Below are positions 2,958 through 39,343 of a stretch of 64,000 nt of DNA, piece after piece. Origin of the DNA: Candidatus Yanofskybacteria bacterium (GTDB lineage Bacteria; Patescibacteriota; Minisyncoccia; 2-02-FULL-40-12; GWA2-44-9); the NCBI GenBank assembly GCA_020852375.1, contig JADZAY010000008.1, positions 9,688 to 73,687 of the forward strand, in the 5' to 3' direction. Both the position numbers and the translations under genes were made by a program. The notes below the pieces were generated by a model that did not search any database, was not told the origin of the DNA, and was given only the letters and a program-made list of their open reading frames with translations. Each line of letters starts with the position of its first letter. The first letter of the stretch is position 1.

Positions 2958-4464
2958 TCCTCTCGCTCATGCGGAGCGCCATGGCCTCCGCAATATGGTG
3001 CGACTCGATGATCTGCGCACCCTCGAGATCGGCAATCGTTCGGCCGATCTTTTTTATCTTATGGTAAGCACGGAGCGAAAGATTATTTCGATTTACCGCC
3101 ATTTTAAGGAGATTCTCGGCGTCGGCCGTGAGAACGCAGAGCGAATCGATGTTCGTGTGGCGGATCTCGCTATTGGTAACAAGCCCGAACGGAGAAAGGC
3201 GTTCCTGTTGGGCTTCGCGAGCCCGTACGATGGCTTTTCTTGCCGCGATGATATCTGTGGGGGATGATGCCGCATCATCGATCCGTTCTCGCGAAACCTG
3301 GACTCGAATATCCACGCGGTCGAGGAGCGGCCCGGAGATTCGTTTTGCGTATTTCAGTGCCGTAATAGGGGAGCATGTGCATTCGGCTGACGCATCTCCG
3401 AGATTCCCGCAGGGGCATGGATTCATTGCGGCAACGAGCATGAATTTTGCAGGGAGCGTCATTGACCCCGACGCTCGCGAGATGGAAACGACACCGTCTT
3501 CAAGGGGCTGGCGGAGCGCTTCGAGGACATTTCGTGCGAATTCGGGGAGCTCGTCCAGGAAAAGAACCCCGCGATGCGCAAGGCTTACTTGGCCTGGACG
3601 AACAACGGTGCCGCCACCGACGATAGATGCTGAGGATGCCGTGTGATGAGGCGATGAAAACGGCCGGGTGATGGCGCTGACCGGCCCCCGCAAAAGTCCC
3701 GCTGCGCTCTGGATCTTTGCCACCTCGAGGGCCTCCTGGCTCGTGAGCGGCGGAAGAAGGCCCGCCAGCGAGCGTGCCAGCAGCGTCTTTCCTGAGCCGG
3801 GGGATCCGCTCATGAGTACATTGTGGGCGCCCGCGGCGGCAACAATGAGCGCTCGTTTTGCGGTTTGCTGGCCCTTGATGTGCAGAAAGGAGTCATCATT
3901 TGGCACTGGTGCCACGGCGGTGTCACCAGGTGTCACCGGTATTGGCACCTGGTGACACAGGTGTGACACCACCTGCGACAAGGTGTCAGCTCCGATGACA
4001 CCAACCCCTGACACCACCGATGCCTCCGCGGCGTTGCAGGAGGGGACGATGATCTGCTCGATCCCGAGCTCCTTGGCGAGCATTGTGGCGGCCAAAATAC
4101 CGTTCGTATGAGCGAGGTGCCCATCAAGGCCTAGCTCTCCGATGAGCAGCGTCTTTGGCCCAGCTATGACGGCCTGACGGCTCTCAGCGAGGTAGGCTAC
4201 GGCGATCGGAAGGTCGTATCCCGGCCCCTCTTTCTTGATGTCGGCCGGTGCTAAGTTCACCACAAACCGCTTATTCTTGCTCCGAGGCGCAGAGAAGCCG
4301 CTATTTTTTATAGCGGCTTCTATTCGATCGATTGATTCCTGCACCGCTTTGTCGCCAAGACCGACGATCGAAAACGCATGAATGCCCGGATTCGAATCTA
4401 TCTGAACTCGAACGAGTTGAGCGTCGATCCCACCGAGTGCAGCTGAGAGGAATTGATGCGCCAC
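2947..4464 (-). CDS. comM: Competence protein ComM / YifB-family Mg-chelatase-like AAA+ ATPase
   Basis: 505 aa. It has an N-terminal Lon-like domain, Walker A GSPGSGKT, GVLFLDELPEF, and the Cys cluster CPCGNLGDASAECTCS typical of the ComM/YifB family. Confidence 0.9.
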   Translation of the reverse strand: MAHQFLSAALGGIDAQLVRVQIDSNPGIHAFSIVGLGDKAVQESIDRIEAAIKNSGFSAPRSKNKRFVVNLAPADIKKEGPGYDLPIAVAYLAESRQAVIAGPKTLLIGELGLDGHLAHTNGILAATMLAKELGIEQIIVPSCNAAEASVVSGVGVIGADTLSQVVSHLCHQVPIPVTPGDTAVAPVPNDDSFLHIKGQQTAKRALIVAAAGAHNVLMSGSPGSGKTLLARSLAGLLPPLTSQEALEVAKIQSAAGLLRGPVSAITRPFSSPHHTASSASIVGGGTVVRPGQVSLAHRGVLFLDELPEFARNVLEALRQPLEDGVVSISRASGSMTLPAKFMLVAAMNPCPCGNLGDASAECTCSPITALKYAKRISGPLLDRVDIRVQVSRERIDDAASSPTDIIAARKAIVRAREAQQERLSPFGLVTNSEIRHTNIDSLCVLTADAENLLKMAVNRNNLSLRAYHKIKKIGRTIADLEGAQIIESHHIAEAMALRMSERITS

Positions 4465-4498
4465 AGATCAATGCGCCCCCTCAAGCGCAAAATGGGCT

Positions 4499-4825
4499 CT
4501 AGGCAGCGGTCTGACTCGTCTCCTGTATCTTATCGTTCAAACGAGCCATCTCCTCTCCTGCGCGATTTTTGAGGGCAATAAGGAGATCCTGCGTTTCTGA
4601 ATCGGCTGTGAACTCTTGCGCGTCTTCCGACGGCTCGTTTCCACCCGAGTCTGCGTGGATCATGGGGATGCGCTCTGCGAGCTTGTTTGAGAACAAGTTG
4701 TACGCTGCCCACTTTTTCCGCATTTCATCGATGCCGCCCTCGGGGAGCGACTCGATCACGCTCAATTCTTTTTGGGTTCCACTGACTTCTGCGGCGCTGG
4801 AGATATCTTCTGGAAAATGTTCCAT
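4499..4825 (-). CDS. Small acidic hypothetical protein (start uncertain)
   Basis: The track ORF 4499..5161 runs at its 5' end into a repeat-rich region that gives WCH...WCH translation artefacts. The plausible product starts at the internal Met MEHFPEDISS... (about 108 aa, acidic, no recognised domain). Confidence 0.3.
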   Translation of the reverse strand: MEHFPEDISSAAEVSGTQKELSVIESLPEGGIDEMRKKWAAYNLFSNKLAERIPMIHADSGGNEPSEDAQEFTADSETQDLLIALKNRAGEEMARLNDKIQETSQTAA

Positions 4826-5295: not shown

Positions 5296-6679
5296 GCATG
5301 AGCTGGTCGATGGCGAAGAACATCGCCTCTCGTGAGCCGGTGAGGACGAGGTAATTCTTCCCGTTCGAAGCAAGGACGATGGCGTAGTCGATACTGCGGT
5401 CTGCGTAGGGGAAGTTCCAGTACCGGACGGCGATCTGGCGATAGGTTCCCGTTGAAAACTCCTGCACAACGCGGCGGCTCATACCGTAGCCGAAGAATGG
5501 CGCTCCGGCAGATGCGAGACCGGTATTTTCCCAGACGGTGAGCGCTTGGTTGGCTTTCGTGGCGTTCGAGAGCTCCATCACGATCGCGATGCGAGTTCCG
5601 ACCGCGGCGTCGGGGTCAACGGTGCCGGAGGCGGTGAACTGCTCGGTCTGGCCGAAGGCGAGTACCATCCAGTCGGAGGCGAGCGTTGATGCGAGGTCGG
5701 CCGGCACTCCGCCATCAAGCATAATGTCCAAGAACTGAGCAGCTGTTGCGGACCCGCCGTTCAGCTCCACAATGACCGGAACCGCCTGCTTGCTCTTCGG
5801 CGCAGTGTTCGCAAGGGCGCTTGCGAAATCAGTCCGTGCAACGGTGTCATTCTTCAGCGTCGCAGTCACCGTCTGTCCTTTGAAGTACGAGGAGAGTGAG
5901 CGGCCGAGCACCGGGGCTGATGTTGCTGCAGCGGGAGTGGGGGTTTGGGATGGGGTTGGCGTTTCATCTCCGCCGAAGAGCGATGTAATGAGGAGCGCGA
6001 TCCCTCCGATGACGATCGCGCCGAGGATGCCCACGACGACTTTCTTCAGCATCCCCGAAGGCGCAGTTGCGGCGGGAACGGAAATCGTAGGCGCCTGCCG
6101 AGGCGCTTCGGCAGGCGTTTTTTGTTGCGGCGGAACTCCCATTGGGGCTTGGCCGACGCGGATGTTCCCGATATCGGCCGACATCGTGCGAAGCTCGCTG
6201 CTGTAATCAGCCGCGGTTTCCGTCTTTTGCGTTGGTTTCGGCGCCTGGGGTATTACTGGGGGCGCAGGTGGAGCTGGCGGGCGTGGGGCGACTGGGCGTA
6301 TCGGCGCCACAGGAGTCTTCGGCGGTGGTGGCGGCGGGGGAGGCATCGCGGGTCGTCCGAGCGGCGCGACTCCCTGCGGCGCTGGCGGCATTGCGGGAGG
6401 AGTTTTTGGAGCTTGAGGTGTGGGTGCCGGCGAGGGAGGAGGCGTTGCGACCGGCTGCGGTGCGGCCATTTTGGGTTGTGCTGGTGTCGGGGCGGGCATT
6501 GGTGCCAGAACCGCCGGCTGCGGTGCTTGCCCCGGCGCACGGATCGGGAGATTCGTCGGAGCGCCTGATCGCGTTGGTGCTGGCGGATTCGACGCCTGAT
6601 CTTTTGCCCGCTGAGCCGCGAGGTCATTGAGCATAGCGCTGATACGAGCGGCATTCGGGGATTGCGGTTGGTCGGGCAT
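5291..6679 (-). CDS. Proline-rich membrane-anchored hypothetical protein
   Basis: 462 aa. The N-terminal roughly 200 aa are a low-complexity P/A/Q-rich segment. A single TM helix (VVVGILGAIVIGGIALLITSLFGG) follows. The roughly 220-aa C-terminal globular domain has no recognised motif. Confidence 0.6.
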   Translation of the reverse strand: MPDQPQSPNAARISAMLNDLAAQRAKDQASNPPAPTRSGAPTNLPIRAPGQAPQPAVLAPMPAPTPAQPKMAAPQPVATPPPSPAPTPQAPKTPPAMPPAPQGVAPLGRPAMPPPPPPPPKTPVAPIRPVAPRPPAPPAPPVIPQAPKPTQKTETAADYSSELRTMSADIGNIRVGQAPMGVPPQQKTPAEAPRQAPTISVPAATAPSGMLKKVVVGILGAIVIGGIALLITSLFGGDETPTPSQTPTPAAATSAPVLGRSLSSYFKGQTVTATLKNDTVARTDFASALANTAPKSKQAVPVIVELNGGSATAAQFLDIMLDGGVPADLASTLASDWMVLAFGQTEQFTASGTVDPDAAVGTRIAIVMELSNATKANQALTVWENTGLASAGAPFFGYGMSRRVVQEFSTGTYRQIAVRYWNFPYADRSIDYAIVLASNGKNYLVLTGSREAMFFAIDQLMQ

Positions 6680-6762
6680 TGTGAGAGTGGTTATGCGTCA
6701 ATCATACCTCCGAAGTAGAGAAATCGAAAAGGCCCTCGCGGGCCTTTTCGGAAACGTGTGCG

Positions 6763-8916
6763 TTACGAGTGTCGGCTTCGGTCGCCGCCGCCGCGGGGGC
6801 GTTCCCCTCGCGGCTTTCCGTTTGGGCCGAGCATCGAAAGGGAGATCTTCCCCTCCGGGCTTACGGAGACGACCCACACATGTACTTTTTGGCCTTCCTT
6901 CACCACGTCTGAAGGATGAGCGACTCGTTCGGTGCTCATCTCTGAGACATGGACCATACCGTCCTTGCCGGGGACGATCTCAACGAAAGCGCCGAAATCC
7001 TTTATCGAGACGACAGTTCCGTCGAACTCATCGCCCGGCTTTGGTTCGTAGGTGAGCTGTTCAATGCGCTCGATGGCAAGCTTCATGCCATCCGCAGAGG
7101 CGCAAGTGATGAAGACCATGCCATCGTCTTCGATGTCGATAGTCGCGCCAGTTTCATCGATGATCGCGTTGATCGTCTTTCCACCGGAGCCGATGACCAA
7201 GCCGATCTTTTCGGGGTCGATTCGCATGGTGTGGACGCGCGGGGCATGCGGTGAAAGCTCGGAGCGGGGCGCGGCGATCGCAGATTCCATGACCGCGAGG
7301 ATCTCCAAGCGCGCCTTTCGGGCCTGCGCAAGTGTTTCGCGCACGATGGTCGGTGTGATGCCGTCGATCTTCACATCCATCTGCATGGCTGTGACGCCGT
7401 CTTTTGTTCCGGCCACTTTCAGGTCCATGTCGCCGTGGTGGTCCTCCGGGCCCTGGATATCGGTAAGGATCTTGTAGCTTTCTCCTTTCTCATCCAGCAT
7501 AAGCCCCATCGCGATACCGGCAGCCGGCGCGAGGATCGGGACGCCGCCATCCATAAGCGCAAGGGTGGAGCCGCATACGGATGCCTGCGACGATGACCCG
7601 TTCGATCCGAGAATTTCTGAAACAACACGGATCGTGTAGGGGAATTTCTCCCGAGAGGGGATGATCGGTGCGAGCGCACGCTCGGCGAGGGCTCCATGGC
7701 CAACCTCACGCCGCCCGGGAGCTCCCATGCGTCCCGTTTCACCGACCGAGTACGGAGGGAAGTTGTAGTGGTGGATGAATCCTTTCTTTGTGAGGTCGAT
7801 CTCCATGCTCTCGAGCCACTGCTCTTGGCCCGGCGCGCCGAGCGTTAGCACAGACAGCGCCTGCGTTTCGCCGCGCATAAAGAGCCCGTTTCCGTGGGTG
7901 CGCGGGATCACGCCGATCTCCGCGCTGATGGGGCGGAGCTCATCGAGCTTTCGTCCGTCCACGCGCCGGTTCTTCTCGAGAACGTTGCGGTGAACGACGT
8001 TGTTGATCGCCTCCTCAAACAGACTTTCGGCGGCGGTTTTCTTTGCTTCGAGATCGGGGGCTCCCGCATAGGTCTCGTCCAAGTGCTTCATGAGCTCTTC
8101 TTTCACTGCCGCCTGTCCGGCGTAGTGCTCCGCTTTCGACGATGTGAAGATGGCAGTGTCGAGCTTCGGTTCGCAGAAATCGCGAACCTCGCGGGCGAGC
8201 GCTTCGTCGACGGCCGCCATGGCGAGTTCGGCCTTCTGTTTGCCGACCTCTTTCGCGATCGTTATCTGGAGGTCATTGAGCTCCTTGAGAGCTTTGAATC
8301 CCGCTTCAATGGCATCACCCATGACATCCTCGGAAACGATCTTCGCTCCCGCCTCGATCATATTGATGCGGGTCGAGGTGCCGGAAACGATGATGTCGAG
8401 GTCGCTCTCGAGGCGCTCTGCGTAGGTTGGGTTGATGACGAATGCGCCATTGATGCGGCCGACGCGCACGCTTGCCACCGGACCCGCGTAGGGGATGTCA
8501 GAGATCATGAGCGCCGTGGAAACGGCGAAGACCGCCGGCATATCGGCGTCGTTGATCTTGTCGAAGGTGAGCACGGTCGCAACGCACTGAAGCTCGTTTC
8601 GCGTGCGATGATCGAAGCGAGGGCGAATGGAGCGATCGATGACCCGCCCCGTCAGGATCGCCTCTTCGGTGGGGCGGCCTTCGCGCTTCAGCCACTTCGA
8701 ATCCTTGATCTTCCCCGCAGCGTAATAGCGTTCCTCAAAGTCGACGGACAACGGAAAATAATCCTTCGGGGTGACGTTGCCGAGGACTGCCGTCGCCAGA
8801 ACGGTCGTTTCGCCGTACTGGACCAACACCGAACCGTTCGCTTGCTGCGCCAACTTGCCCGTCTTTATGATGAGCGGCTTTCCCGCGAATGTCGCGGTAT
8901 ATACTTTTTCTGCCAT
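6763..8916 (-). CDS. pnp: Polynucleotide phosphorylase (polyribonucleotide nucleotidyltransferase)
   Basis: Two RNase PH-like domains, then KH (GLVIGSGGKTI) and S1 (GTVVSIKDFGAFVEI) domains. The start is set at the internal MAEKVYTATF... (Met26 of track ORF 6763..8991). A short Arg/Gly-rich C-terminal tail is present. Confidence 0.95.
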   Translation of the reverse strand: MAEKVYTATFAGKPLIIKTGKLAQQANGSVLVQYGETTVLATAVLGNVTPKDYFPLSVDFEERYYAAGKIKDSKWLKREGRPTEEAILTGRVIDRSIRPRFDHRTRNELQCVATVLTFDKINDADMPAVFAVSTALMISDIPYAGPVASVRVGRINGAFVINPTYAERLESDLDIIVSGTSTRINMIEAGAKIVSEDVMGDAIEAGFKALKELNDLQITIAKEVGKQKAELAMAAVDEALAREVRDFCEPKLDTAIFTSSKAEHYAGQAAVKEELMKHLDETYAGAPDLEAKKTAAESLFEEAINNVVHRNVLEKNRRVDGRKLDELRPISAEIGVIPRTHGNGLFMRGETQALSVLTLGAPGQEQWLESMEIDLTKKGFIHHYNFPPYSVGETGRMGAPGRREVGHGALAERALAPIIPSREKFPYTIRVVSEILGSNGSSSQASVCGSTLALMDGGVPILAPAAGIAMGLMLDEKGESYKILTDIQGPEDHHGDMDLKVAGTKDGVTAMQMDVKIDGITPTIVRETLAQARKARLEILAVMESAIAAPRSELSPHAPRVHTMRIDPEKIGLVIGSGGKTINAIIDETGATIDIEDDGMVFITCASADGMKLAIERIEQLTYEPKPGDEFDGTVVSIKDFGAFVEIVPGKDGMVHVSEMSTERVAHPSDVVKEGQKVHVWVVSVSPEGKISLSMLGPNGKPRGERPRGGGDRSRHS

Positions 8917-16709: not shown

Positions 16710-18236
16710 CTATAACGTCTGTTGTACCGTTTCTTCGGTCACGAACTCAAGCACATCGCCCTCTTGAATATCGCCGTCGAAGCTTGATGTGTCAATCCGC
16801 AAGCCGCACTCAACGCCTTGCGCGACTTCCGAAACGTCCTCTTTTTCCTGCTGGAGATTGGTCACCTTACCGATGCGAGTGGGCGTTTCGCCACGAGCAA
16901 GATCGACGAGTGAGCCTTTCTTCACGGAGCCGGAGGTGACCTTTCCGCCAAGGATGACCGCGCGTGATTCGGTTTTAAAGATCGCAAGAACGCGGAGTTT
17001 TCCCAGCACGGTGCGCTTGGTTTCTGTGGGGAGTAGGGTGGCCAGATTGGTTCGGACGGCTTCGACGAGTTCGTAGATGATATCGAAGGATGCGATACGG
17101 ATACCGTCGCGCTCGGCAAGTTTCTGTGCCGCCGGTTCGGTGGCGACACGGAACCCGAGAATGATCGCTCCCTTCGCCGCCGCAGTTTTCACGTCGGCTT
17201 CAGTGATGTTCCCGATGCCGGAAGCGAGCACACGCAGACCGACGTGTTCGTTCGGAATGGACGCGACCGCAAGTTCGATCGCTTCCAGCGAGCTCGCGAC
17301 GTCCGCCTTGAAGATGACGTTCAGGAGGGAGCGGTCACTTCCCGGAGCTTCCTGTCCGCGGTAGGTGTCGAACGCGACCGGCGGGGGAGTGATCGAATCG
17401 GCCGCGAGGTCTTCGGCGGCTTTCTTTGCGGTTGCCGTGCGGAACTGTCCGCCGACACGGGGCGCTTCGGGCCAACCGGTGAGGAGCACCGGTTGGGAGG
17501 GGGACGCCGTTTCCAGGGCGGCTCCGCGGAAATCCTCCATGCTCTTCACCTTTCCAACGACATGGTCAACGACGATCCAGTCGCCGACGCGGAGCGTGCC
17601 ATTCTGCACGAGCGCGGTCGCGACATATCCGCGCCGCTTATCGAGATTCGACTCGATGATGACGCCTGACGCAGGGCCGGTGGTGGTACTGGTGAGTTCC
17701 TGCAGCTCTGCGACCAGGTTGACCATGTCGAGCAGTTCGGGGATGCCCGCTCCGGTCTTTGCGCTGATCTCGAGTGCGGGCGTCTGCCCGCCCCACTCTT
17801 CGACGAGCACGTCTTCCTGGGCGAGGTCTTGCTTTACTTTCGCGGGGTTCGCGCCTTCTTTGTCGGTCTTGTTGATGGCGACGATGCAGGGGATCCCCGC
17901 GTCCTTGATGATGCGGATGGCCTCGCGGGTCTGTGGCTTGACGGATTCGTCGGCGGCGACGACGAGAACGGCGACATCGGCGACCTTCGCGCCGCGGCTG
18001 CGGATCGCGGTGAATGCTTCGTGACCCGGGGTGTCGAGGAATGTGATCAGGCGTCCGTTGGTCTCGGCTTGGTAGGCGCCGATGTGCTGCGTGATGCCGC
18101 CGGATTCACCTTCAATGACATTCGTGTTGCGGATGGCGTCGAGCAGCTTGGTTTTTCCGTGGTCGACGTGACCCAACACCACCACGACGGGTGGGCGCGA
18201 AGCTGAGTGCTCGGTTGAGGATGAGAGTTCGGCCAT
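16710..18236 (-). CDS. infB: Translation initiation factor IF-2 (short form)
   Basis: G-domain motifs VVVVLGHVDHGKTKLLD, DTPGHEAF and NKTD, plus C-terminal beta-barrel domains. 508 aa, lacking the long N-terminal region of E. coli-type IF-2. Confidence 0.92.
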   Translation of the reverse strand: MAELSSSTEHSASRPPVVVVLGHVDHGKTKLLDAIRNTNVIEGESGGITQHIGAYQAETNGRLITFLDTPGHEAFTAIRSRGAKVADVAVLVVAADESVKPQTREAIRIIKDAGIPCIVAINKTDKEGANPAKVKQDLAQEDVLVEEWGGQTPALEISAKTGAGIPELLDMVNLVAELQELTSTTTGPASGVIIESNLDKRRGYVATALVQNGTLRVGDWIVVDHVVGKVKSMEDFRGAALETASPSQPVLLTGWPEAPRVGGQFRTATAKKAAEDLAADSITPPPVAFDTYRGQEAPGSDRSLLNVIFKADVASSLEAIELAVASIPNEHVGLRVLASGIGNITEADVKTAAAKGAIILGFRVATEPAAQKLAERDGIRIASFDIIYELVEAVRTNLATLLPTETKRTVLGKLRVLAIFKTESRAVILGGKVTSGSVKKGSLVDLARGETPTRIGKVTNLQQEKEDVSEVAQGVECGLRIDTSSFDGDIQEGDVLEFVTEETVQQTL

Positions 18237-29302: not shown

Positions 29303-29839
29303 ATGGGGCATCAGGGACAACAAGGATTCACACTGCTCGAGGTGCTCGTTGTGGCGAGCATCACCGTGTTCATCACCGGGCTTTTGGTCGTGAACTTTTC
29401 TCGGACGCGGGTCGATCTGAATCAAACGATCCTGACGATCCAGGATGCGATACGCGAAGTGCAGGGGCAGGCGCTTTCGGGTTCTCTGGTGCGGGGGACG
29501 CATCGGTGCGGATACGGCATCGTCTTCACTGCGACCGGATACACGCTCTATGCAGGGCCGGACTCCGCGGCGGTGGATTGTGTCGGGGCGCCGCGGACGT
29601 TCGATGCGGGTGCGAGCACGGTCCTTCGCCAGGCACTCCTTGCAAGCAACGTGCTTGAGGTGGTATCTCCGTTGCCGGATATTTACTTCGAGCCGCCGAA
29701 TCCGACCACGTACCTGAACGGAGCGGCGAACCCAGGAGCAACGGCGACGATACTGGTTCGCCGAAAAGGCGCGCAGTGTCCGTCCGCGGATTGCCGTGCG
29801 CTGACCGTGTCATCGTCAGGTCGCATTGAATTGCAATGA
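29303..29839 (+). CDS. Prepilin-type N-terminal cleavage/methylation domain protein (minor pilin)
   Basis: N-terminus QGFTLLEVLVVASITVFITGLLVV. Confidence 0.7.
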   Translation: MGHQGQQGFTLLEVLVVASITVFITGLLVVNFSRTRVDLNQTILTIQDAIREVQGQALSGSLVRGTHRCGYGIVFTATGYTLYAGPDSAAVDCVGAPRTFDAGASTVLRQALLASNVLEVVSPLPDIYFEPPNPTTYLNGAANPGATATILVRRKGAQCPSADCRALTVSSSGRIELQ

Positions 29840-30318
29840 ACAAGCGAGGATTCACATTGGTCGAAGTGTTGGTCGCGTTGGCGCTCCTGAGCGTCGGGTT
29901 GGTGCCCGCATTCATCCAGGCGACAAATGCGCTCATGCTTTCCACTACCGTGCGGAATTCGCTCATCGCCGCGCACCTTGCCCAAGAGGGTGTCGAGGTG
30001 CTGCGCGCTCTGCGAGACGACAACTGGTTTGCCGGGCGCGCATTCGATGCTGGTCTTGATGCGTGCCAGGTGGGATGCATTCTTGCGTGGAATGCCGACA
30101 CGCCCCAGGATGCTGCCGGTAACCTTCCGCTCAAGTTCGATGCCGCGACGGGCATGTATCAGTACGCAACCGGTACGGACTCGCCATTCCGCCGGAAGAT
30201 TACGGTTGCCCACGTTTCTCCCGTCGAGCTTTCCGTGATCAGCGAGGTGACGTGGCGCGAGCGCTCGGTCGACAAGCGGTTCGTCGTAGAATCGCATTTG
30301 TACAACTGGCTCCCATGA
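29836..30318 (+). CDS. Prepilin-type N-terminal cleavage/methylation domain protein (minor pilin)
   Basis: N-terminus MNKRGFTLVEVLVALALLSVGLV. It overlaps neighbouring genes by 4 bp on each side. Confidence 0.7.
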   Translation: MNKRGFTLVEVLVALALLSVGLVPAFIQATNALMLSTTVRNSLIAAHLAQEGVEVLRALRDDNWFAGRAFDAGLDACQVGCILAWNADTPQDAAGNLPLKFDAATGMYQYATGTDSPFRRKITVAHVSPVELSVISEVTWRERSVDKRFVVESHLYNWLP

Positions 30319-30890
30319 CGCGAACCACACTTCCGATCTCTGATCCTCAGCCTCAGGAAAAGGGGTTCTCCCTTATCGAGCTGCTGGTCGCCGCGACGAT
30401 CTTTACCTTTGTGGTAACAGGAGTGACCGGGCTCTTCCTGCAAGCGCTCGACCTCCAGCGTCGCGCCTCGGGCATCCAGAAGATCGAGGAGAACGCGCAG
30501 TTTCTGATCGAGTCCATCGCACGCGAGATCCGCGTGAGCCGCATCACGAGTTCCGATTCGATCTGCACGCCGCCGGATCCTGCCACGACTCGAACGCTGG
30601 TGATCGAACATCCCGTGAACGGGACCATCACCTATACCTACGCGAAGGTTGGTGGCGTCGGAGCGGTGATGCGCGATGACGGGAGTGGTCCCCAGCAGGT
30701 CACCGCGAAGGATGTCGACCTCACAGCATTCGCGTTTTGCGTGACCGGATCCGGGCCCGGCGGCAAGCAGGCCCGGGTGACCATTCCCATGACGCTCCGT
30801 TCGACCGCCGGCCGTGCCGGTGCGCAGGTATCAGTGTCGCTGCAGACGACTATCGTCGCCCGGGACCTTTCTCAAGACATTGTTCCATGA
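30315..30890 (+). CDS. Prepilin-type N-terminal cleavage/methylation domain protein (minor pilin)
   Basis: The start is set at MTRTTLPISDPQPQEKGFSLIELLVAATIFTFVV. There are ATGA overlaps at both ends. Confidence 0.65.
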   Translation: MTRTTLPISDPQPQEKGFSLIELLVAATIFTFVVTGVTGLFLQALDLQRRASGIQKIEENAQFLIESIAREIRVSRITSSDSICTPPDPATTRTLVIEHPVNGTITYTYAKVGGVGAVMRDDGSGPQQVTAKDVDLTAFAFCVTGSGPGGKQARVTIPMTLRSTAGRAGAQVSVSLQTTIVARDLSQDIVP

Positions 30891-33519: not shown

Positions 33520-35688
33520 ATGCCTTCCGAACCGCACCCGAACACCGCTCCGGAATTCAAATCCGTCCGCGAAGAACACCGCGCTCTGCGTAAGGTCCAG
33601 AAGAGCATGGCTGAACACGGAGCGGTACCCGAAGACCTGGCCGCGGAGCTGGAATCGCTCAAACAGCGAGCCCGCGATCTTGTTGCGCAAGCCGGAGGAT
33701 TCTGGGAGTTGCGGAAACAGCGGCGGGAGACCGAATCTCTGCGGCCAATCGTTCGCTCCGTTTCGTCCGGCCGCGCCGAACTCCGCCGGCGAGCGTTTCA
33801 GATCGCCCGTGCATCGGCACAGCACGGCATGACGGCGTGGGCGGAGCGCGCCCTTGCCGCCCTGGACACCGACCTTCGCGCAATGGACGAGCAGATCGAG
33901 AAGCTCCGGCAGGACCCGGAATCCGCCGTCCAGCTCCGGATGATCGAACTCTCCGGCTGGCGCGACCAACTTCAGGAAGGGTACGCAGCCACGCAATCCC
34001 GCCAAGAGCACCTGGACCGCATGCAGGAGCTCATCCAGGCCGGCAAGCCCATCTTCCTGAAGGGACCCACCGGCACGGGGAAAACGGAGCTGGCCCGCAG
34101 GCTCGTACACGAGCTGTACGGAAAAGACCCTGAAATCGTCCGCGGCAACCCGAACGTGCAGGAGTGGACCATGATCGGGCAGGTGGGGCTCCGGGCAACC
34201 GAGCAGGGAGCAACCGAAACGGTGTTCGACCCCGGTCCGGTCATCCGAGCCATGACCCGGGGCATTCCCGTCGTCATCGACGAGTTCAACCAGATCGATC
34301 CGCAGGTCCGATTCGTGCTCAAGGAGCTGTACAACCGCAGGCCGGGCGACTGCGTGCAGGTGCCGAACAACGGAACGCACTGCATCGAGGACGGATTTGC
34401 CATTATCGTGACTGCCAACCTGGGCAGCCGCTACGAGAAGGCGCGGTTCCCGTTGGACGATGCCGAAGAGCGGGTGTTCCTGGATTGCACCGTGGATGTC
34501 GGCTACCTCCCGCCCCACGAACTCTACGACCTCTGCCTGGCATCGCTTATTGCGGTGCGCGGCCAGGCACCGGTGAGCGCGGCGGAGGCGGCGGACGTCC
34601 TGAAGCGGTACTGCGACGCCGTCAGCGAGATCGACCGCATCTACACGGACGGCACGAGCGCATTCGATCTGGAGGGCAAGGCATCCCGCGGCGTCAAACA
34701 GGCGCTGGAGAAAACCGTCATCGATCCCGGTCTCGCGCTCCGCCTGGTCCGCGACTACGCGGTCGCCGGCTCGCGCGCCGCATCGCTGGCGGAACACCTC
34801 GCGCGCCGCGTCACCGACCTCCTGGTGAACCTCAACAACGACAACGACCGCAACCTCATGGCGAAGGTGTTTTCCCAGTTCGGCATCATCACCGTCCCGA
34901 TCGGCGATCTCGCCGCGACTGCCGCCACCCGCACGGTGCTCTCCTCCGCGCCGCTGCCGGCATCGGAGCGCGGCAGTATCCCGCTCCGCGACGCGGCACT
35001 CCTGGACCCGTACCGCCGCCGCGCCGCGTCCCTGGAAGCGGATGCGGAATCGCTGGGAGTGTCCCGGGTCAAGCCACCGGACACAATCATCCCCGGCGGT
35101 TCGCCGGAGCGCGCATCCGCCGCGGTGACCGCCTTCCTCCGCGACACGTTCCAGAACGCCTGGAGCTACACTCCGAAGCAGCTCGCGATCGCGGAGCAGA
35201 ATCTGAAGCCCGAATTCGTCGCTCCCTCCGTTGTGGACTACGCCGCGCGCAAAGCCGATGTCAATGCGGCGCAATCCGGCCAGTACACCCTGAACCCCGA
35301 AACCGTCGGCATCGACTGGGATTCCCTGACTCCCGAGCAGATCGCCGAACGGACCGAGATCGTCGACCTCAACGCCGATCCCGTATTCGCGAAGCTCGCA
35401 GACAAATCGCTCGCTTCCGTTGCCGACTTCGTTACCCGTACCTACGGCTCCGCCCGTCTCCCCGGTCTGGAGCTGGAACGGCGCCTCTACGCGCTCGGCA
35501 ACCAGGCTCCCGCCGCCTTCAAAGAGGTCGGCGCGTATGTATTTTTCTTCGGATCGCTTATCCGGAACGCCAACGGCTACTGGAATGTGCCGTATGCGTA
35601 CTGGGGCGGTGCGGGGTGGTTTCGGGGCGGCTACTGGCTTGAGAATGGCTGGAATGCCGATTGCCGCCTCGTCCTCGTGAAGAGATAG
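33520..35688 (+). CDS. AAA (AAA_5/MoxR-like) ATPase with a C-terminal C-type-lectin-like variable region, the DGR target protein
   Basis: 722 aa. Walker A FLKGPTGTGKTELARR and Walker B VVIDEFNQ. The C-terminal 40 aa (NANGYWNVPYAYWGGAGWFRGGYWLENGWNADCRLVLVKR) are encoded by the VR copy of the DGR repeat. Confidence 0.8.
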   Translation: MPSEPHPNTAPEFKSVREEHRALRKVQKSMAEHGAVPEDLAAELESLKQRARDLVAQAGGFWELRKQRRETESLRPIVRSVSSGRAELRRRAFQIARASAQHGMTAWAERALAALDTDLRAMDEQIEKLRQDPESAVQLRMIELSGWRDQLQEGYAATQSRQEHLDRMQELIQAGKPIFLKGPTGTGKTELARRLVHELYGKDPEIVRGNPNVQEWTMIGQVGLRATEQGATETVFDPGPVIRAMTRGIPVVIDEFNQIDPQVRFVLKELYNRRPGDCVQVPNNGTHCIEDGFAIIVTANLGSRYEKARFPLDDAEERVFLDCTVDVGYLPPHELYDLCLASLIAVRGQAPVSAAEAADVLKRYCDAVSEIDRIYTDGTSAFDLEGKASRGVKQALEKTVIDPGLALRLVRDYAVAGSRAASLAEHLARRVTDLLVNLNNDNDRNLMAKVFSQFGIITVPIGDLAATAATRTVLSSAPLPASERGSIPLRDAALLDPYRRRAASLEADAESLGVSRVKPPDTIIPGGSPERASAAVTAFLRDTFQNAWSYTPKQLAIAEQNLKPEFVAPSVVDYAARKADVNAAQSGQYTLNPETVGIDWDSLTPEQIAERTEIVDLNADPVFAKLADKSLASVADFVTRTYGSARLPGLELERRLYALGNQAPAAFKEVGAYVFFFGSLIRNANGYWNVPYAYWGGAGWFRGGYWLENGWNADCRLVLVKR
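35557..35677 (+). repeat. DGR variable repeat (VR) at the 3' end of the target gene
   Basis: 121 bp. Compared with the copy at 35961-36081, 111 of 121 positions are identical. All 10 differences are T or G here where the other copy has A. Confidence 0.85.
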
Positions 35689-35960
35689 CTCGTTGTGCTT
35701 GATCCGTTGTGATGATTCTTGATCTGTTGGTGGTTGGTCTGCGCCGCGAATATCGGCAGGCCGGATGTTCCCGTCTGCCGCGGCGTCGAGACGAATGACT
35801 CCCGAATGCGGTCTGCCAGCGCTCGCCGCAGTGCGGGTCATGCACATCGTGACGATACGAAGCGCGTCTGCGTAAGATGCCAGGGCATTGCGATGCCGAA
35901 TCAGATTCAGCCCCGAGGAAGGAGAACCAAGGGGCGGTGACACGGAAGGCATTCTGCGCT

Positions 35961-36081
35961 CATATCCGGAACGCCAACGGCAACTGGAATGTGCCGTATG
36001 CGAACTGGGACGGTACGGGGTGGAATCGGAACGGCAACTGGCTTGAGAATGGCTGGAATGCCGATTGCCGCCTCGTCCTCG
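35961..36081 (+). repeat. DGR template repeat (TR)
   Basis: This is the A-bearing copy. The AAC codons correspond to TAC/TTT/GGC/GCG-type codons in the VR. Identity ends at the same GC-rich 3' block (GCCGATTGCCGCCTCGTCCTCG), a candidate IMH element. Confidence 0.85.
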
Positions 36082-36084
36082 CCG

Positions 36085-36471
36085 CTACGCGCCTGTATGT
36101 CTGCCCGCCTGGTGCTTCCAGCCGTAGAGCATGCGGCCGATCTCTTCCAGGCGGGCGGACAAGTCAGAAAACCTCGTCTCGCCGATTCCTTCAAGCTCCC
36201 ACAGCGCGGTGAGCATGAATTTTAAGACATCGTTTCGCGCGATGGCCCGTGCGAGGAGCGGCGGTCGTTCAAGCGAGGGAGCGAATTGCGCCGCGGCAAT
36301 CAGTTCTACGAGTTCCGCAAAGAGCGCGTCAATACGGATGCCAAGAGAGTAGCGACGCATCTTGGGGATGTGGCGCGTAATGGAATGCCATTGCACATAT
36401 GCAGCGAGCAGTTTTGCGGCAGTTCCGGAAATCCTGTCCGTGCGGATGTTTTTCGGGGGGGGGTGCTCCAT
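36085..36471 (-). CDS. avd: Accessory variability determinant (Avd)-like four-helix-bundle protein
   Basis: 128 aa from the internal MEHPPPKN.... The motifs IPKMRRYSLGIRIDALFAELVELIAAAQ and the C-terminal EIGRMLYGWKHQ match the bAvd / 23S-rRNA-IVS-protein family pattern. It is basic. Its start codon lies 3 bp from the RT start, on the opposite strand. Confidence 0.65.
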   Translation of the reverse strand: MEHPPPKNIRTDRISGTAAKLLAAYVQWHSITRHIPKMRRYSLGIRIDALFAELVELIAAAQFAPSLERPPLLARAIARNDVLKFMLTALWELEGIGETRFSDLSARLEEIGRMLYGWKHQAGRHTGA

Positions 36472-36473
36472 GT

Positions 36474-37466
36474 ATGACTCTGAATGTAGCATACGACAGC
36501 ATATTTTCATACGAGCGGCTCTTCGCGAGCTGGCGTGCGTTTGCGCGCGGGAAGCGGCAGCGTGCGGACGTCGCCGCATACGCCGTGCGCCTGATAGACA
36601 ATATCTCGTCATTGCACCGTGACCTTGCGAACGGAACATGGCAGCATGGCGGGTATCGCCGTTTTTGTGTTTCCGATCCGAAACCGCGCATTATCCACAA
36701 GGCATCGGTACGCGACCGCATTGTCCACCACGCGATCATGTCCGCGCTCGGTCCGTACTTTGAGCGGCGATTCATTCCGGATTCATACTCCTGCAGAATC
36801 GGGAAGGGAACTCATTGTGCGCTGGGCAGGTTCGCGGAGTTCATCCGAAGCGGCAGTCGCAACGACACGCGCACCTGCTGGGTGCTCCAGTGTGACATTC
36901 GGAAGTGCTTCGCATCGCTTGATCAAAGGGTGCTCATCGCACTTCTTTCACGGCATGTACCCTGCGAGAAGTTGATGCGGGTGCTCCGGTCGGTCATTGA
37001 GAGTTACTCGTCCGGGGCATCGGGAGCTGGAATTCCGCTTGGCAACCTCACGAGCCAGCTGTTCGTAAATGTGTACCTTCATGAACTCGACAGGTTCATG
37101 GGGAAGACGCTTCGATGCTTGCAGTATATTCGCTACGCCGATGACTTTGCGGTAGTTTCTCCGAACCGCGCGTGGCTCATGTCACTCGTGCCGCATATCC
37201 GTAATTTTCTGGGCACTGCTCTCAAGTTGCAACTGCATCCGGGCAAACTCACTCTGCGGACAGTCGCTTCGGGCGTGGATTTCCTCGGGTGGGTCCATTT
37301 TCCGAACCACCGCGTCTTGCGCACGGCAACGAAGCGGCGAATGTTCCATGCATTGCGGCGATCCGCCGCGCTTCCGACGGTCGCGTCGTACCTTGGCTTG
37401 CTCGGCAATGGAAATACGCATCGCCTCGTGCAAATGGTCAGAGGGCTTGCTATACTCCACGAATAA
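36474..37466 (+). CDS. DGR-type reverse transcriptase
   Basis: The start is set at MTLNVAYDS.... RT motifs include FIPDSYSCRIGKGTH, the DGR-characteristic IPLGNLTSQLFVNVYL (LGxxxSQ) and the catalytic YADDF. About 330 aa, with no maturase or endonuclease domains. Confidence 0.85.
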   Translation: MTLNVAYDSIFSYERLFASWRAFARGKRQRADVAAYAVRLIDNISSLHRDLANGTWQHGGYRRFCVSDPKPRIIHKASVRDRIVHHAIMSALGPYFERRFIPDSYSCRIGKGTHCALGRFAEFIRSGSRNDTRTCWVLQCDIRKCFASLDQRVLIALLSRHVPCEKLMRVLRSVIESYSSGASGAGIPLGNLTSQLFVNVYLHELDRFMGKTLRCLQYIRYADDFAVVSPNRAWLMSLVPHIRNFLGTALKLQLHPGKLTLRTVASGVDFLGWVHFPNHRVLRTATKRRMFHALRRSAALPTVASYLGLLGNGNTHRLVQMVRGLAILHE

Positions 37467-37468
37467 GC

Positions 37469-39343
37469 ATGACGGAGCGCATCTCGGAGCCAACACCGGA
37501 GCAGACCGCGCGGCGGGAAATGGCCGAGCGAATTTGGCGCGAGCATGGGAGGTATTTTGAATCGTATGCGGGCACGTATGGGTTGGAAGTCAAGCCGTCG
37601 CCTCCCGGACTGGGAACATTCGCTGTCAATTTGGAAAAAGGCATCCTCTATATCGCGACGGAGTGGTTCCTGGAGCGGGGATATTCCGAAGCGGAGATTC
37701 CCGCCTATGTACTGCACGAGATGGAGCATATGCGGGAAGCGGATGCGCTGGTGCGTACTCATGGCGGACTGGGGGTGTGGCGAGAGCACGGCAAGCGGTG
37801 CAAGGCCAGCCGACGATTCCGTATTTTAGATAACTGCGTAGATGACATCAAGATGAACCGGACCGTAATGCTCCGTGCGCCGGTACAGACAGAAACGCTT
37901 CTCGACTTTTATCGCAGGCGGTTCAATGGGGGAACGAATGATCTTTCGGGAGCGCCGCGGCATTTGCAGTTTGCGTACGCGCTCCTGCGGCTGGCAATGT
38001 TGCCTGATGAACCGGTCGTCGTGGCACCCGAAGTACGGGAGGCGCTGGACGAGCTGGAGGCGCTCCGTGGCCGAAGCGGTCGCACCGCGCTGGACATTAT
38101 GACGGATCCACAGGTGGATATGGCCACACGTCTTACGCTCCAGGAAAAAAACGTTGAACCGCTGTTCGAGCGGTTGTATGAGCGGGATCGTCGGGAGCGG
38201 CAACCGGAAAAACCGGGCGATAGCCAGGGCGGGGAGAAAAGTGGCGGCGAAGGCGGGGGCGAGGGCGACGATCCGTTCGCCAGCGAGTATGACCGTTTTG
38301 ATGCGCAGAATCCGGATGGAGCGCTCTCCGACGACGCGCTCGGGGACGCGGTGGACGAGGCGGATGCGTCCGGCGCGCTTGCGCGTCCGCGCGGCGGACA
38401 GCTGGCAGACGCGGCACGGGATGCTCGTTCTGCGTACGCTCGTGAACATGGCGTTTCCGAATCCGAACTTGCCGCATACCGGCGATTCTACGATCAGTTG
38501 ACAGCGCTTACTGACCCCGAAACGGGTCGCACGGTTGTTGACGGTTTGCGGGATGTGTTTGAGCAAATCATTTCGGAACGTGAGCGACCACGGGTGGTGC
38601 CGAAGCATCCGGTTATACATGGCCACCGGCTTTCACGGCCGGCACAGGCGCATATTGCGGCGCGAACGGGCGACCGGCACCCCTCTGTGTGGGAGACGGT
38701 CGAACGAAAGGAGAAAAAAGGCGAGCTGTACGGCGACGTTGATGTAGTGCTCGTCTGTGATCGGTCGGGGAGCATGCTCGGCCAGAAGGCAATCCAGCAG
38801 CGACTGGCGGCGGGTTTGATGCTGGAGGCGCTTGCCGACTTTTCCGAGCTCATCCATGAGCGTGCGAGCGGGCTGACCGATCCGCTGGTCGTGCGAACCC
38901 AGACGTGGTCGTTCGGTGACGAGGCGGTCACGAACGAGCTCAAGCCGTTGAGCGATAACCTAACCGAGCGCGATCGCGTGGCCGTGTTTCATGCGCTCGG
39001 CTCTACTCCGGGCAGCTCCACGATGGATTACGAAGCGCTCAAGCGTATTGCAGACGGCATTGATGCGGGCGAACAGCAACTGCTCCGTCAGAAAAAACTG
39101 AAGAAGATCATCATCGCGCTTACCGATGGCGTTAGTAGCGATATGCCCGCGTTGCGTGGCCAGATTGAGCGGCTCCGTGGCATGGGCGCGGTTGTTGTCG
39201 GTGTTGGTATCACCAAAGACGGCGTATCGGCCGAGACATCATATGCTCCGAACGGCCTTGTCTGTGCGGAGGTCGCAGCTCTGCCGCGCACGCTCGCCGA
39301 CCTATTGAAAAAGCATTTGGCTGACCTGAATGTCCGGCGGTGA
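37469..39343 (+). CDS. von Willebrand factor A domain protein with N-terminal HExxH (zinc-metallopeptidase-like) domain
   Basis: The start is set at MTERISEPTPEQ... (3 bp after the RT stop). The N-terminal domain has YVLHEMEHMREADAL. An acidic Gly-rich linker follows. The C-terminal VWA has a MIDAS-like motif VVLVCDRSGSM...IIIALTDGVS. Confidence 0.75.
   Translation: MTERISEPTPEQTARREMAERIWREHGRYFESYAGTYGLEVKPSPPGLGTFAVNLEKGILYIATEWFLERGYSEAEIPAYVLHEMEHMREADALVRTHGGLGVWREHGKRCKASRRFRILDNCVDDIKMNRTVMLRAPVQTETLLDFYRRRFNGGTNDLSGAPRHLQFAYALLRLAMLPDEPVVVAPEVREALDELEALRGRSGRTALDIMTDPQVDMATRLTLQEKNVEPLFERLYERDRRERQPEKPGDSQGGEKSGGEGGGEGDDPFASEYDRFDAQNPDGALSDDALGDAVDEADASGALARPRGGQLADAARDARSAYAREHGVSESELAAYRRFYDQLTALTDPETGRTVVDGLRDVFEQIISERERPRVVPKHPVIHGHRLSRPAQAHIAARTGDRHPSVWETVERKEKKGELYGDVDVVLVCDRSGSMLGQKAIQQRLAAGLMLEALADFSELIHERASGLTDPLVVRTQTWSFGDEAVTNELKPLSDNLTERDRVAVFHALGSTPGSSTMDYEALKRIADGIDAGEQQLLRQKKLKKIIIALTDGVSSDMPALRGQIERLRGMGAVVVGVGITKDGVSAETSYAPNGLVCAEVAALPRTLADLLKKHLADLNVRR

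Follow-up and report, generated by a model that had tools for sequence, protein, structure and literature searches.

Components of the locus and the repeat pair

We analyzed a 64-kb stretch of DNA, here called the window, which is one assembled sequence from a metagenome-assembled genome (MAG) of Candidatus Yanofskybacteria, a bacterium of the Patescibacteria, or candidate phyla radiation (CPR). It contains, in this order, a target gene that ends in a variable repeat (VR), a leader RNA followed by a template repeat (TR), an avd gene on the opposite strand, a reverse transcriptase (RT) gene, and a gene for a VWA-domain partner protein. Judged from its sequence, this set is very probably a structurally complete chromosomal diversity-generating retroelement (DGR) of the Patescibacteria clade. 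The genes, the two repeats, and the block that ends both repeats are as follows.

33520-35688, plus strand: the DGR target, a soluble AAA+ ATPase of 722 amino acids (aa), with Pfam AAA_5 at aa 178-303 (E 1.7e-13)
35557-35677, plus strand: VR, the last 40 codons of the target gene, identical to the TR at 111/121 positions
35663-35677, plus strand: GC-rich block GCCGCCTCGTCCTCG, a candidate boundary of the IMH (initiation of mutagenic homing) type, which ends the VR; an identical copy at 36067-36081 ends the TR
35961-36081, plus strand: TR, noncoding, with 27 adenines, all at codon position 1 or 2 of the VR frame, and 10 AAY codons
36085-36471, minus strand: avd, encoding a basic protein of 128 aa (pI about 10) that matches NF033474 and Pfam bAvd-like (PF22296)
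36474-37466, plus strand: the DGR RT, 330 aa, with LGNLTSQ at residue 189, YADD at residue 221, and Pfam RVT_1 only
37469-39343, plus strand: a VWA-domain protein of 624 aa (Pfam VWA, E 2.2e-8) with an intact MIDAS motif, DRSGS (DxSxS), at residue 431

A first-pass annotation of this DNA, made from the letters alone, had described the two repeats as a DGR-type pair. Its repeat coordinates, the 111/121 identity, the offset of 404, and the confinement of all mismatches to TR adenines were reproduced exactly. At each of the 10 mismatches the TR has A and the VR has T or G. The probability that 10/10 mismatches would fall on TR adenines by chance is 6.7e-8 (hypergeometric, 27 A in 121 nt). The adenines are also placed with respect to the reading frame of the target: 27/27 lie at codon position 1 or 2, for which the chance expectation is (2/3)^27, or about 2e-5, and the substitutions in the VR are nonsynonymous in every case. 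The VR corresponds to codons 680-720 of the 722-aa open reading frame (ORF) at 33520-35688, confirming that it forms the end of a protein-coding gene. There are zero non-adenine differences over the 121 nt, which suggests that the VR was copied from the TR recently relative to neutral drift.

The boundaries of the repeats differ in sharpness. At the 5' end, a mismatch (35558, the first of the 10) already occurs at base 2 of the repeat, and BLAST begins the pair at 35559; thus, this boundary is soft. At the 3' end, both copies finish in the same GC-rich block, as had been claimed, and the flanks of the VR and TR diverge completely beyond GCCGCCTCGTCCTCG. By analogy with the BPP-1 element as treated in PMC5758913, the block is a candidate homing boundary of the IMH/IMH* type. 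A repeat search found the VR/TR pair to be the only long repeat family in 33-39 kb, and no further VR-like copy was found in the 64-kb window, on both strands and with the TR-adenine positions left free. Thus, the repeat is not dispersed, and the check for a generic multicopy repeat gave a negative result in the window.

Because the TR keeps the reading frame of the VR, an ORF at 35877-36212 on the plus strand spans it. Most likely, this ORF simply mirrors the VR frame and is not a gene. A TR-spanning ORF in a related locus (L001:5630-6040) is publicly annotated as a 136-aa protein, which is probably an artifact.

Reverse transcriptase, Avd, and related loci

The RT is 330 aa long, contains YADD and LGNLTSQ, and has RVT_1 as its only Pfam domain, with no maturase or endonuclease domain found by Pfam, which agrees with its initial description. 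Its best match in the PDB is chain 8ub7 (E 1.3e-44 over residues 7-290), a 328-aa "Reverse transcriptase" with IGSLTSQ and YMDD, which we take to be the Bordetella phage bRT. Group II intron RTs in the PDB matched at E 6e-16 or weaker and retron-type RTs at 4e-13. In a tblastn search, 83 phage records, including 5 from Bordetella phages, aligned to at least 91% of the RT with identities of 31-38%. Relatives of the RT at about 55% identity number more than 7,900 and are mostly from Patescibacteria.

These searches bear on a different explanation of the locus, in which an ordinary duplication or gene-conversion tract happens to lie beside an unrelated group II or retron RT and the adenine pattern arose by chance. 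The best NCBIfam model for the RT is indeed that of group II RT/maturases, and the public annotation agrees with it, mislabeling the protein as a [quoted passage not shown] just as it labels the target merely as an "AAA family ATPase." However, the score of 129 bits is far under the 300-bit cutoff of that model, and the match covers the RT part only. The NCBIfam retron RT model gave 31 bits against a cutoff of 235 bits. Chain 8ub7 matched about 28 orders of magnitude better than the group II RTs, and Rfam had no match to a group II intron or retron RNA in 35500-36600. The window RT does share the RVT_1 fold and the fingers/palm motifs with group II intron RTs, but at 330 aa it lacks their maturase (X), DNA-binding, and endonuclease domains, and no intron RNA domains were found by Rfam in that interval. 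Finally, the adenine pattern, already improbable in the window, recurs in 43 related loci. The RT scores, the Rfam null result, and the recurrent adenine pattern effectively refute the ordinary-duplication explanation, to which we give almost no weight.

We rejected a group II intron identity for the element on the missing maturase domain, the below-cutoff model score, and the lack of an Rfam intron match, and a retron identity on its own below-cutoff model score, the PDB comparison (4e-13 versus 1e-44), and the lack of an Rfam retron RNA in the same interval. The class of the RT is assigned here by search scores, motifs, and domain content; by those scores, it did not group with either of these families.

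A basic Avd-like protein of 128 aa is present downstream of the TR, as first proposed. It is encoded on the minus strand, though, so that avd and the RT gene are divergent and not in tandem. The avd stop codon lies 3 nt past the end of the TR, and only 2 bp separate the avd ATG from that of the RT gene (36474). Since the two starts are back to back, each gene must have its promoter and ribosome-binding site either within the other gene or far upstream. Relatives have about 10-100 nt between these start codons, compared with 2 bp in the window (36469-36476). A scan of 35400-37000 gave two terminator-like sites within the RT gene, which are at chance level.

We fetched 80 metagenomic loci with RTs 50-57% identical to that of the window and scanned for TR/VR pairs in a set of 84 sequences, made up of the window stretch and 83 related loci. 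An adenine-biased pair was present in 44/84 (the window and 43 loci); in nearly all of these, the VR precedes the TR by 360-590 nt on the RT strand. Wherever a related locus left room 5' of the RT (about 70 loci), a minus-strand Avd homologue was present there. The DGR interpretation offered by the first-pass annotation is thus borne out by an adenine-specific TR/VR pair, a DGR-type RT, an Avd homologue, and 43 related loci with adenine-biased pairs of the same kind beside an RT-Avd pair.

The closest full-length relative of the target (41% identity) is in locus L001, whose order is AAA-VR, TR, avd on the opposite strand, RT, and VWA, as in the window. There, 14/15 TR/VR mismatches are at TR adenines. 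The combination of an AAA-VR target with a VWA gene also occurs in L103, L136, L144 (partial), and L002, the last with the VWA gene upstream. L002 (CAYTED010000008.1) carries the full module of AAA-VR, TR, opposite-strand avd, and RT in a MAG labeled "uncultured Bdellovibrionales," a host label that reflects either horizontal transfer out of Patescibacteria or a binning error. In loci of this AAA-VR/VWA type (L001, L002, L103, L136, L144), Avd is 53-59% identical to the window Avd. Most other loci in the L082-L161 series have an Avd identity of 31-42% (49% in L114), while RT identity is 50-58% throughout. From these identities, Avd seems to track target type more closely than the RT does.

RNA elements around the template repeat

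Three RNA elements on the plus strand lie close to the repeats.

35737-35792, plus strand: a GC-rich hairpin about 60 nt 3' of the VR and target stop codon, with a fold of -31.5 kcal/mol and no U-run after it
35865-35963, plus strand: a 96-nt three-way-junction RNA directly 5' of the TR, identified by covariation and a covariance model match
36098-36161, plus strand: a 15-bp stem (36098-36112 with 36147-36161) with an inner hairpin, inside the antisense of the avd 3' coding region

The three-way junction, which we call the leader RNA, sits in the 272-nt spacer between the target stop codon and the TR. Helix P1 pairs 35870-35881 with 35948-35959 and ends 1 nt before the TR; P2 pairs 35885-35888 with 35893-35896, and P3 pairs 35910-35914 with 35931-35935. 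A MAFFT alignment of 34 loci contains conserved blocks in the approximately 130 nt upstream of the TR, and RNAalifold on this alignment predicted 23 pairs, 22 of them with compensatory double changes. On the structure-blind alignment, 89.9% of the cells were paired, compared with 32-49% when the 3' partners were slid by 1-3 columns. Cells with double changes numbered 170, versus 34-54 when slid, and 0/500 shuffles reached any of the observed measures. The single-sequence minimum free energy fold of 35865-36200 does not reproduce the junction. The junction rests on covariation, which supports it well, and not on folding energy.

A covariance model built from 25 loci, with the window and L001 excluded, matched the window at 35865-35963 on the plus strand (54.6 bits, E 2.9e-11). 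This was the only significant match in the 64 kb. A second, weak match at 18082-18150 on the plus strand (16.5 bits, E 0.1) is without P2 and P3 and is probably due to chance. On the 83 related loci, the model gave 57 matches, one per locus (for example, L121:1852-1947 and L004:49-151), all on the RT strand except one truncated match at a contig end. No family in Rfam 15 matches the leader or the TR flank, in the window or in 15 related loci. The leader junction is likely the 5' segment of the template RNA of CPR-clade DGRs, and it is a plausible stop or docking element for RT-Avd.

A few nucleotides upstream of P1, the related loci have a conserved A-rich stretch followed by GATACT (consensus AAAAATGAAGATACTTGG), which corresponds to 35854-35859 in the window. 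The window has GATACG about 6 nt further upstream than the GATACT of its relatives. As a possible -10-like promoter element, this sequence could place the start of the template RNA at the junction.

On the other side, in most members of the clade, a CGCAAC-like linker leads from the TR into a stem-loop, and UUUU follows before the avd stop codon is reached (seen by eye; L085:1395-1450 and L121:2074-2125). The stem-loop varies in sequence among loci, but its position, about 25 nt past the TR, is fixed. Because the stems cannot be aligned by sequence, RNAalifold predicted no structure from a MAFFT alignment of the TR 3' flank. By analogy, the stem-loop resembles an intrinsic terminator, the "Avd-binding stem-loop" of Handa et al., or both. 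In the window and L001 the TR abuts the avd stop codon, which accounts for the missing stem-loop and U-run in these two loci. The stem at 36098-36161, 17 nt 3' of the TR, has a fold of -46.5 kcal/mol (z -3.6), with 0/200 shuffles as stable, and may substitute for them in the window.

A strong hairpin is also found 0-100 nt after the VR in most related loci. Its outer stem in the window, GCGCCGCG/CGCGGYGC, is kept in the syntenic relative L162. This post-VR hairpin is a candidate target-recognition hairpin, a candidate terminator of the target gene, or both.

The prototype DGR of Bordetella phage BPP-1 (mtd-VR, avd, TR, Sp, brt) shares several of these properties with the window: adenine-specific transfer from TR to VR, an Avd, an RT homologous over residues 7-290 with the common motifs (I/L)GxxxSQ and YxDD, a GC-rich block at the end of both repeats, and a hairpin downstream of the VR. 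Its target is a tail-fiber protein, whereas that of the window is an intracellular AAA+ ATPase. The RNA upstream of its TR is part of the avd coding sequence, whereas the window has a self-contained three-way junction, and the Rfam RT-10 motif, which is the BPP-1 TR-RT spacer, had no match in the window.

In BPP-1, RNA flanking the TR both 5' and 3' is required (Handa et al. 2024, bioRxiv 10.1101/2023.10.23.563531). The same study surveyed 278 DGRs, covering no more than 40 nt before the TR and 100 nt after it, and it treated the post-TR stem-loop as a putative Avd-binding element. With 40 nt upstream, the 96-nt junction would not have been seen. Helix P1 resembles the "cPRT Stop duplex" of that work in that it ends 1 nt before the TR, where a stop of polymerization is expected. 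The BPP-1 duplex joins the two sides of the TR by pairing an upstream with a downstream sequence, whereas the covariation that we observed places the pairing wholly within the upstream leader.

Target protein, VWA partner, and state of the element

The target has intact Walker A (GPTGTGKT at 182) and Walker B (VVIDE at 251) motifs, and among PDB entries it is closest in sequence to the AAA domains of Midasin (E 9e-13). No transmembrane segment or signal peptide was found in it. In NCBI it is entered as "AAA family ATPase [Candidatus Yanofskybacteria bacterium]." Its C-terminal domain of approximately 195 aa (aa 528-722) bears the VR. An alignment of this domain has an invariant scaffold of W, G, R, and V, between which, in the last approximately 45 residues, nonconserved positions are interspersed. 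The VR domain had no match in Pfam or the PDB, either as a single sequence or as a profile, and no structural match in BFVD.

An exhaustive HMMER search placed about 107 clusters at 50% identity in the target family (E<1e-30). A word-index homology search with the full target returned itself and one relative, and with the C-terminal domain, one fragment. A scan of genome contigs with the target alignment was swamped by the generic Walker A pattern, and the real relatives in it were only L002-L005. The family is mixed. Some members are full length, many have the AAA domain and the middle region only, and a set of 200-300 aa has only the C-terminal 195 residues. In L103, one TR (4393-4520) serves three VRs (2137-2264, 3009-3136, and 3881-4008), which belong to an AAA protein and two short stand-alone copies of the C-terminal domain. 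Such stand-alone copies explain the 200- to 300-aa proteins that match only residues 528-722.

The VWA gene starts 3 nt after the RT stop codon. A VWA homologue with 31-69% identity is linked to an AAA-VR target and a DGR in L001, L002, L103, L136, L144, and L162/L163. Thus, the VWA protein is a conserved partner of the AAA target, found at five or more other loci. The flanks of the module differ among the window, L001, and L002. In the window they are housekeeping genes, with that for NAD-dependent DNA ligase (LigA) upstream and those for GatC and the GatA amidase downstream. Upstream of LigA are two type IV pilin-like genes (29836-30890, plus strand) with the prepilin N-terminal methylation motif, which are kept in the syntenic relative.

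This setting is relevant to the suggestion that the element is a phage or prophage DGR that diversifies a receptor-binding protein, as in BPP-1. Its RT is homologous to many phage DGR RTs, as the tblastn matches illustrate. However, the module is flanked by housekeeping genes, an arrangement shared by a related genome; the target, a soluble AAA+ ATPase, has neither a signal peptide nor a transmembrane segment; the viral structures in BFVD offered no match to its VR domain; and the CPR RT clade is described as almost entirely cellular (PMC8144416). We regard a phage-borne origin as highly improbable.

The window agrees instead with DGRs already described in CPR bacteria, to which it adds one typical example. 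Architecture B3, TR-(avd)-RT, accounts for 90% of the DGRs in the CPR set of Wu et al. (2018, NAR 46:11, PMC5758913), and the window matches it with TR 35961-36081 (plus), avd 36085-36471 (minus), and RT 36474-37466 (plus). In the same work, targets of class UVR4 match the Midasin AAA domain, and Roux et al. (2021, PMC8144416) described RT clade 2 as cellular and restricted to Patescibacteria. The window is like group g1/UVR4 of the former and clade 2 of the latter in its Patescibacteria host, its Midasin-like AAA target, and a VR that ends the target gene a few hundred nucleotides 5' of the TR. The VR domain of g1/UVR4 is likewise without a Pfam family; the likeness of the window to UVR4 rests on the AAA domain and not on an alignment of the VR. 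Dore et al. (2024, PMC10907252), summarizing Paul et al., give the fusion of CLec with an AAA ATPase as the commonest target architecture in CPR. Nothing essential differs between the window and the CPR set of Wu et al., the main text of which is without a VWA partner or a leader RNA. The leader RNA and the VWA partner were the only aspects of which we found no description, in a comparison that Paul et al. (2017, PMC5436926) and a preprint (10.64898/2026.09.22.753630) lay outside.

Conflict systems in which a MoxR-vWA pair is associated with a DGR have been described (Kaur et al. 2020, PMC7159879; Dore et al. 2024, PMC10907252). These ternary (VMAP) systems of multicellular bacteria share with the window a MoxR/Midasin-clade AAA+ protein, a vWA protein, and a DGR, and their diversified protein is predicted to be cytoplasmic. 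They differ in that their CLec/FGS variable domain is usually on the vWA protein, whereas in the window it is on the AAA+ protein. Around the window module, no third component (VMAP, iSTAND, FtsH, or beta-propeller) or effector (peptidase or TIR) is conserved, a result obtained without applying a VMAP-specific profile. Their RT is of a different clade, and the host of the window is a small-genome CPR bacterium.

From these components we infer the following route, including the ends of the transcript, the priming of the cDNA, and the homing signals. A plus-strand RNA would run from near the three-way-junction leader (35865-35963) through the TR (35961-36081). The RT and the basic Avd would copy the TR into cDNA, misincorporating opposite template adenines. 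The cDNA would replace the VR (35557-35677), with guidance from the GC-rich block common to both 3' ends and perhaps from the downstream hairpin. In this way, the C-terminal domain of the AAA+ ATPase could be rerandomized at as many as 27 positions, which fall in 17 codons. The diversified domain most likely binds a ligand, and the AAA+ motor would work with the VWA protein as in MoxR-vWA pairs, giving an intracellular sensor or remodeler of variable specificity.

Two of the related loci, L162 and L163, record what can become of the element. They are near-identical contigs from different samples and are syntenic with 31-42 kb of the window: pilins, LigA, AAA (63%), VWA (69%), GatC, and GatA. 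In L162:5955-6950, the sequence runs without a break from the target stop codon through the spacer and the 5' half of the leader into RT codon ~138. Everything in between, from the 3' half of the leader through the TR and avd to the first 137 residues of the RT (1-137), was lost in a single deletion of approximately 1 kb. L162 and L163 show no difference in 5400-7200, VR included. The VR of this relative has a modest adenine enrichment relative to the window TR (13/27 versus 20/94, P 0.013), which is too weak to serve as evidence. The synteny and the DGR remnant indicate that the DGR predates the split of the two lineages, was vertically inherited at this site, and can be lost by one deletion.

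Several observations weigh against a complete and active DGR with a sensor as its target. Only 10/27 TR adenines (37%) differ in the VR, and the last six, within the 3' 45 nt, are all unchanged. The Avd matches are below the family cutoffs, at E 9.7e-11 and 41.9 bits for NF033474 DivGenRetAVD (cutoff, 80 bits) and E 2.2e-9 and 38.2 bits for bAvd-like (cutoff, 40 bits). A promoter scan found no sigma-70-like promoter in 35400-37000. The window and L001 lack the post-TR stem-loop and U-run that are typical of the clade. The VR is known from one assembled sequence; thus, activity is judged here from sequence. As for the sensor, PADLOC gave no system-level match for the AAA or VWA proteins, and that role is assigned to the pair by analogy.

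Some of these observations leave room for a fossil, that is, a DGR genuine by descent that looks complete and has ceased retrohoming, with the VR as a frozen record. The small proportion of substituted adenines and the missing stem-loop would fit this explanation, as would decay at this very site, where L162/L163 lost the cassette and have identical VRs in two independent samples. However, the RT, Avd, and target ORFs of the window are intact with all catalytic motifs, and its leader RNA still scores 54.6 bits against a model derived from other loci. The zero non-adenine differences between TR and VR speak against long neutral decay. L001 is also without the stem-loop, yet 14/15 of its mismatches are at adenines. 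Therefore, while a fossil has a small but real share of the probability, the intact ORFs and motifs, the high-scoring leader, and the absence of non-adenine differences favor a DGR that is active or was recently so.

Because this class of DGR has been known since 2017, its finding in the window is confirmatory. What has value beyond this is the comparative set, in which one chromosomal site is represented both by an intact copy and by a syntenic copy with a deletion, together with a conserved four-gene module that joins a hypervariable AAA+ ATPase to a VWA partner. The leader RNA could serve as a sequence handle for the 5' boundary and orientation of the TR in Patescibacteria DGRs, and it could define a construct boundary for in vitro reconstitution of a CPR DGR. 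We tentatively propose, as a possibility that we hold at somewhat under even chances, that the leader is an undescribed clade-wide cis element that sets the 5' end of the template, docks RT-Avd, and stops the cDNA at the TR by a helix formed wholly upstream, and that together with the AAA(VR)-VWA pair it makes up a DGR-programmed MoxR-vWA sensor or remodeler in small-genome episymbionts. If the AAA-VWA pair is a variable intracellular sensor, then DGR-diversified conflict and sensor systems would extend from multicellular bacteria to ultra-small episymbionts.

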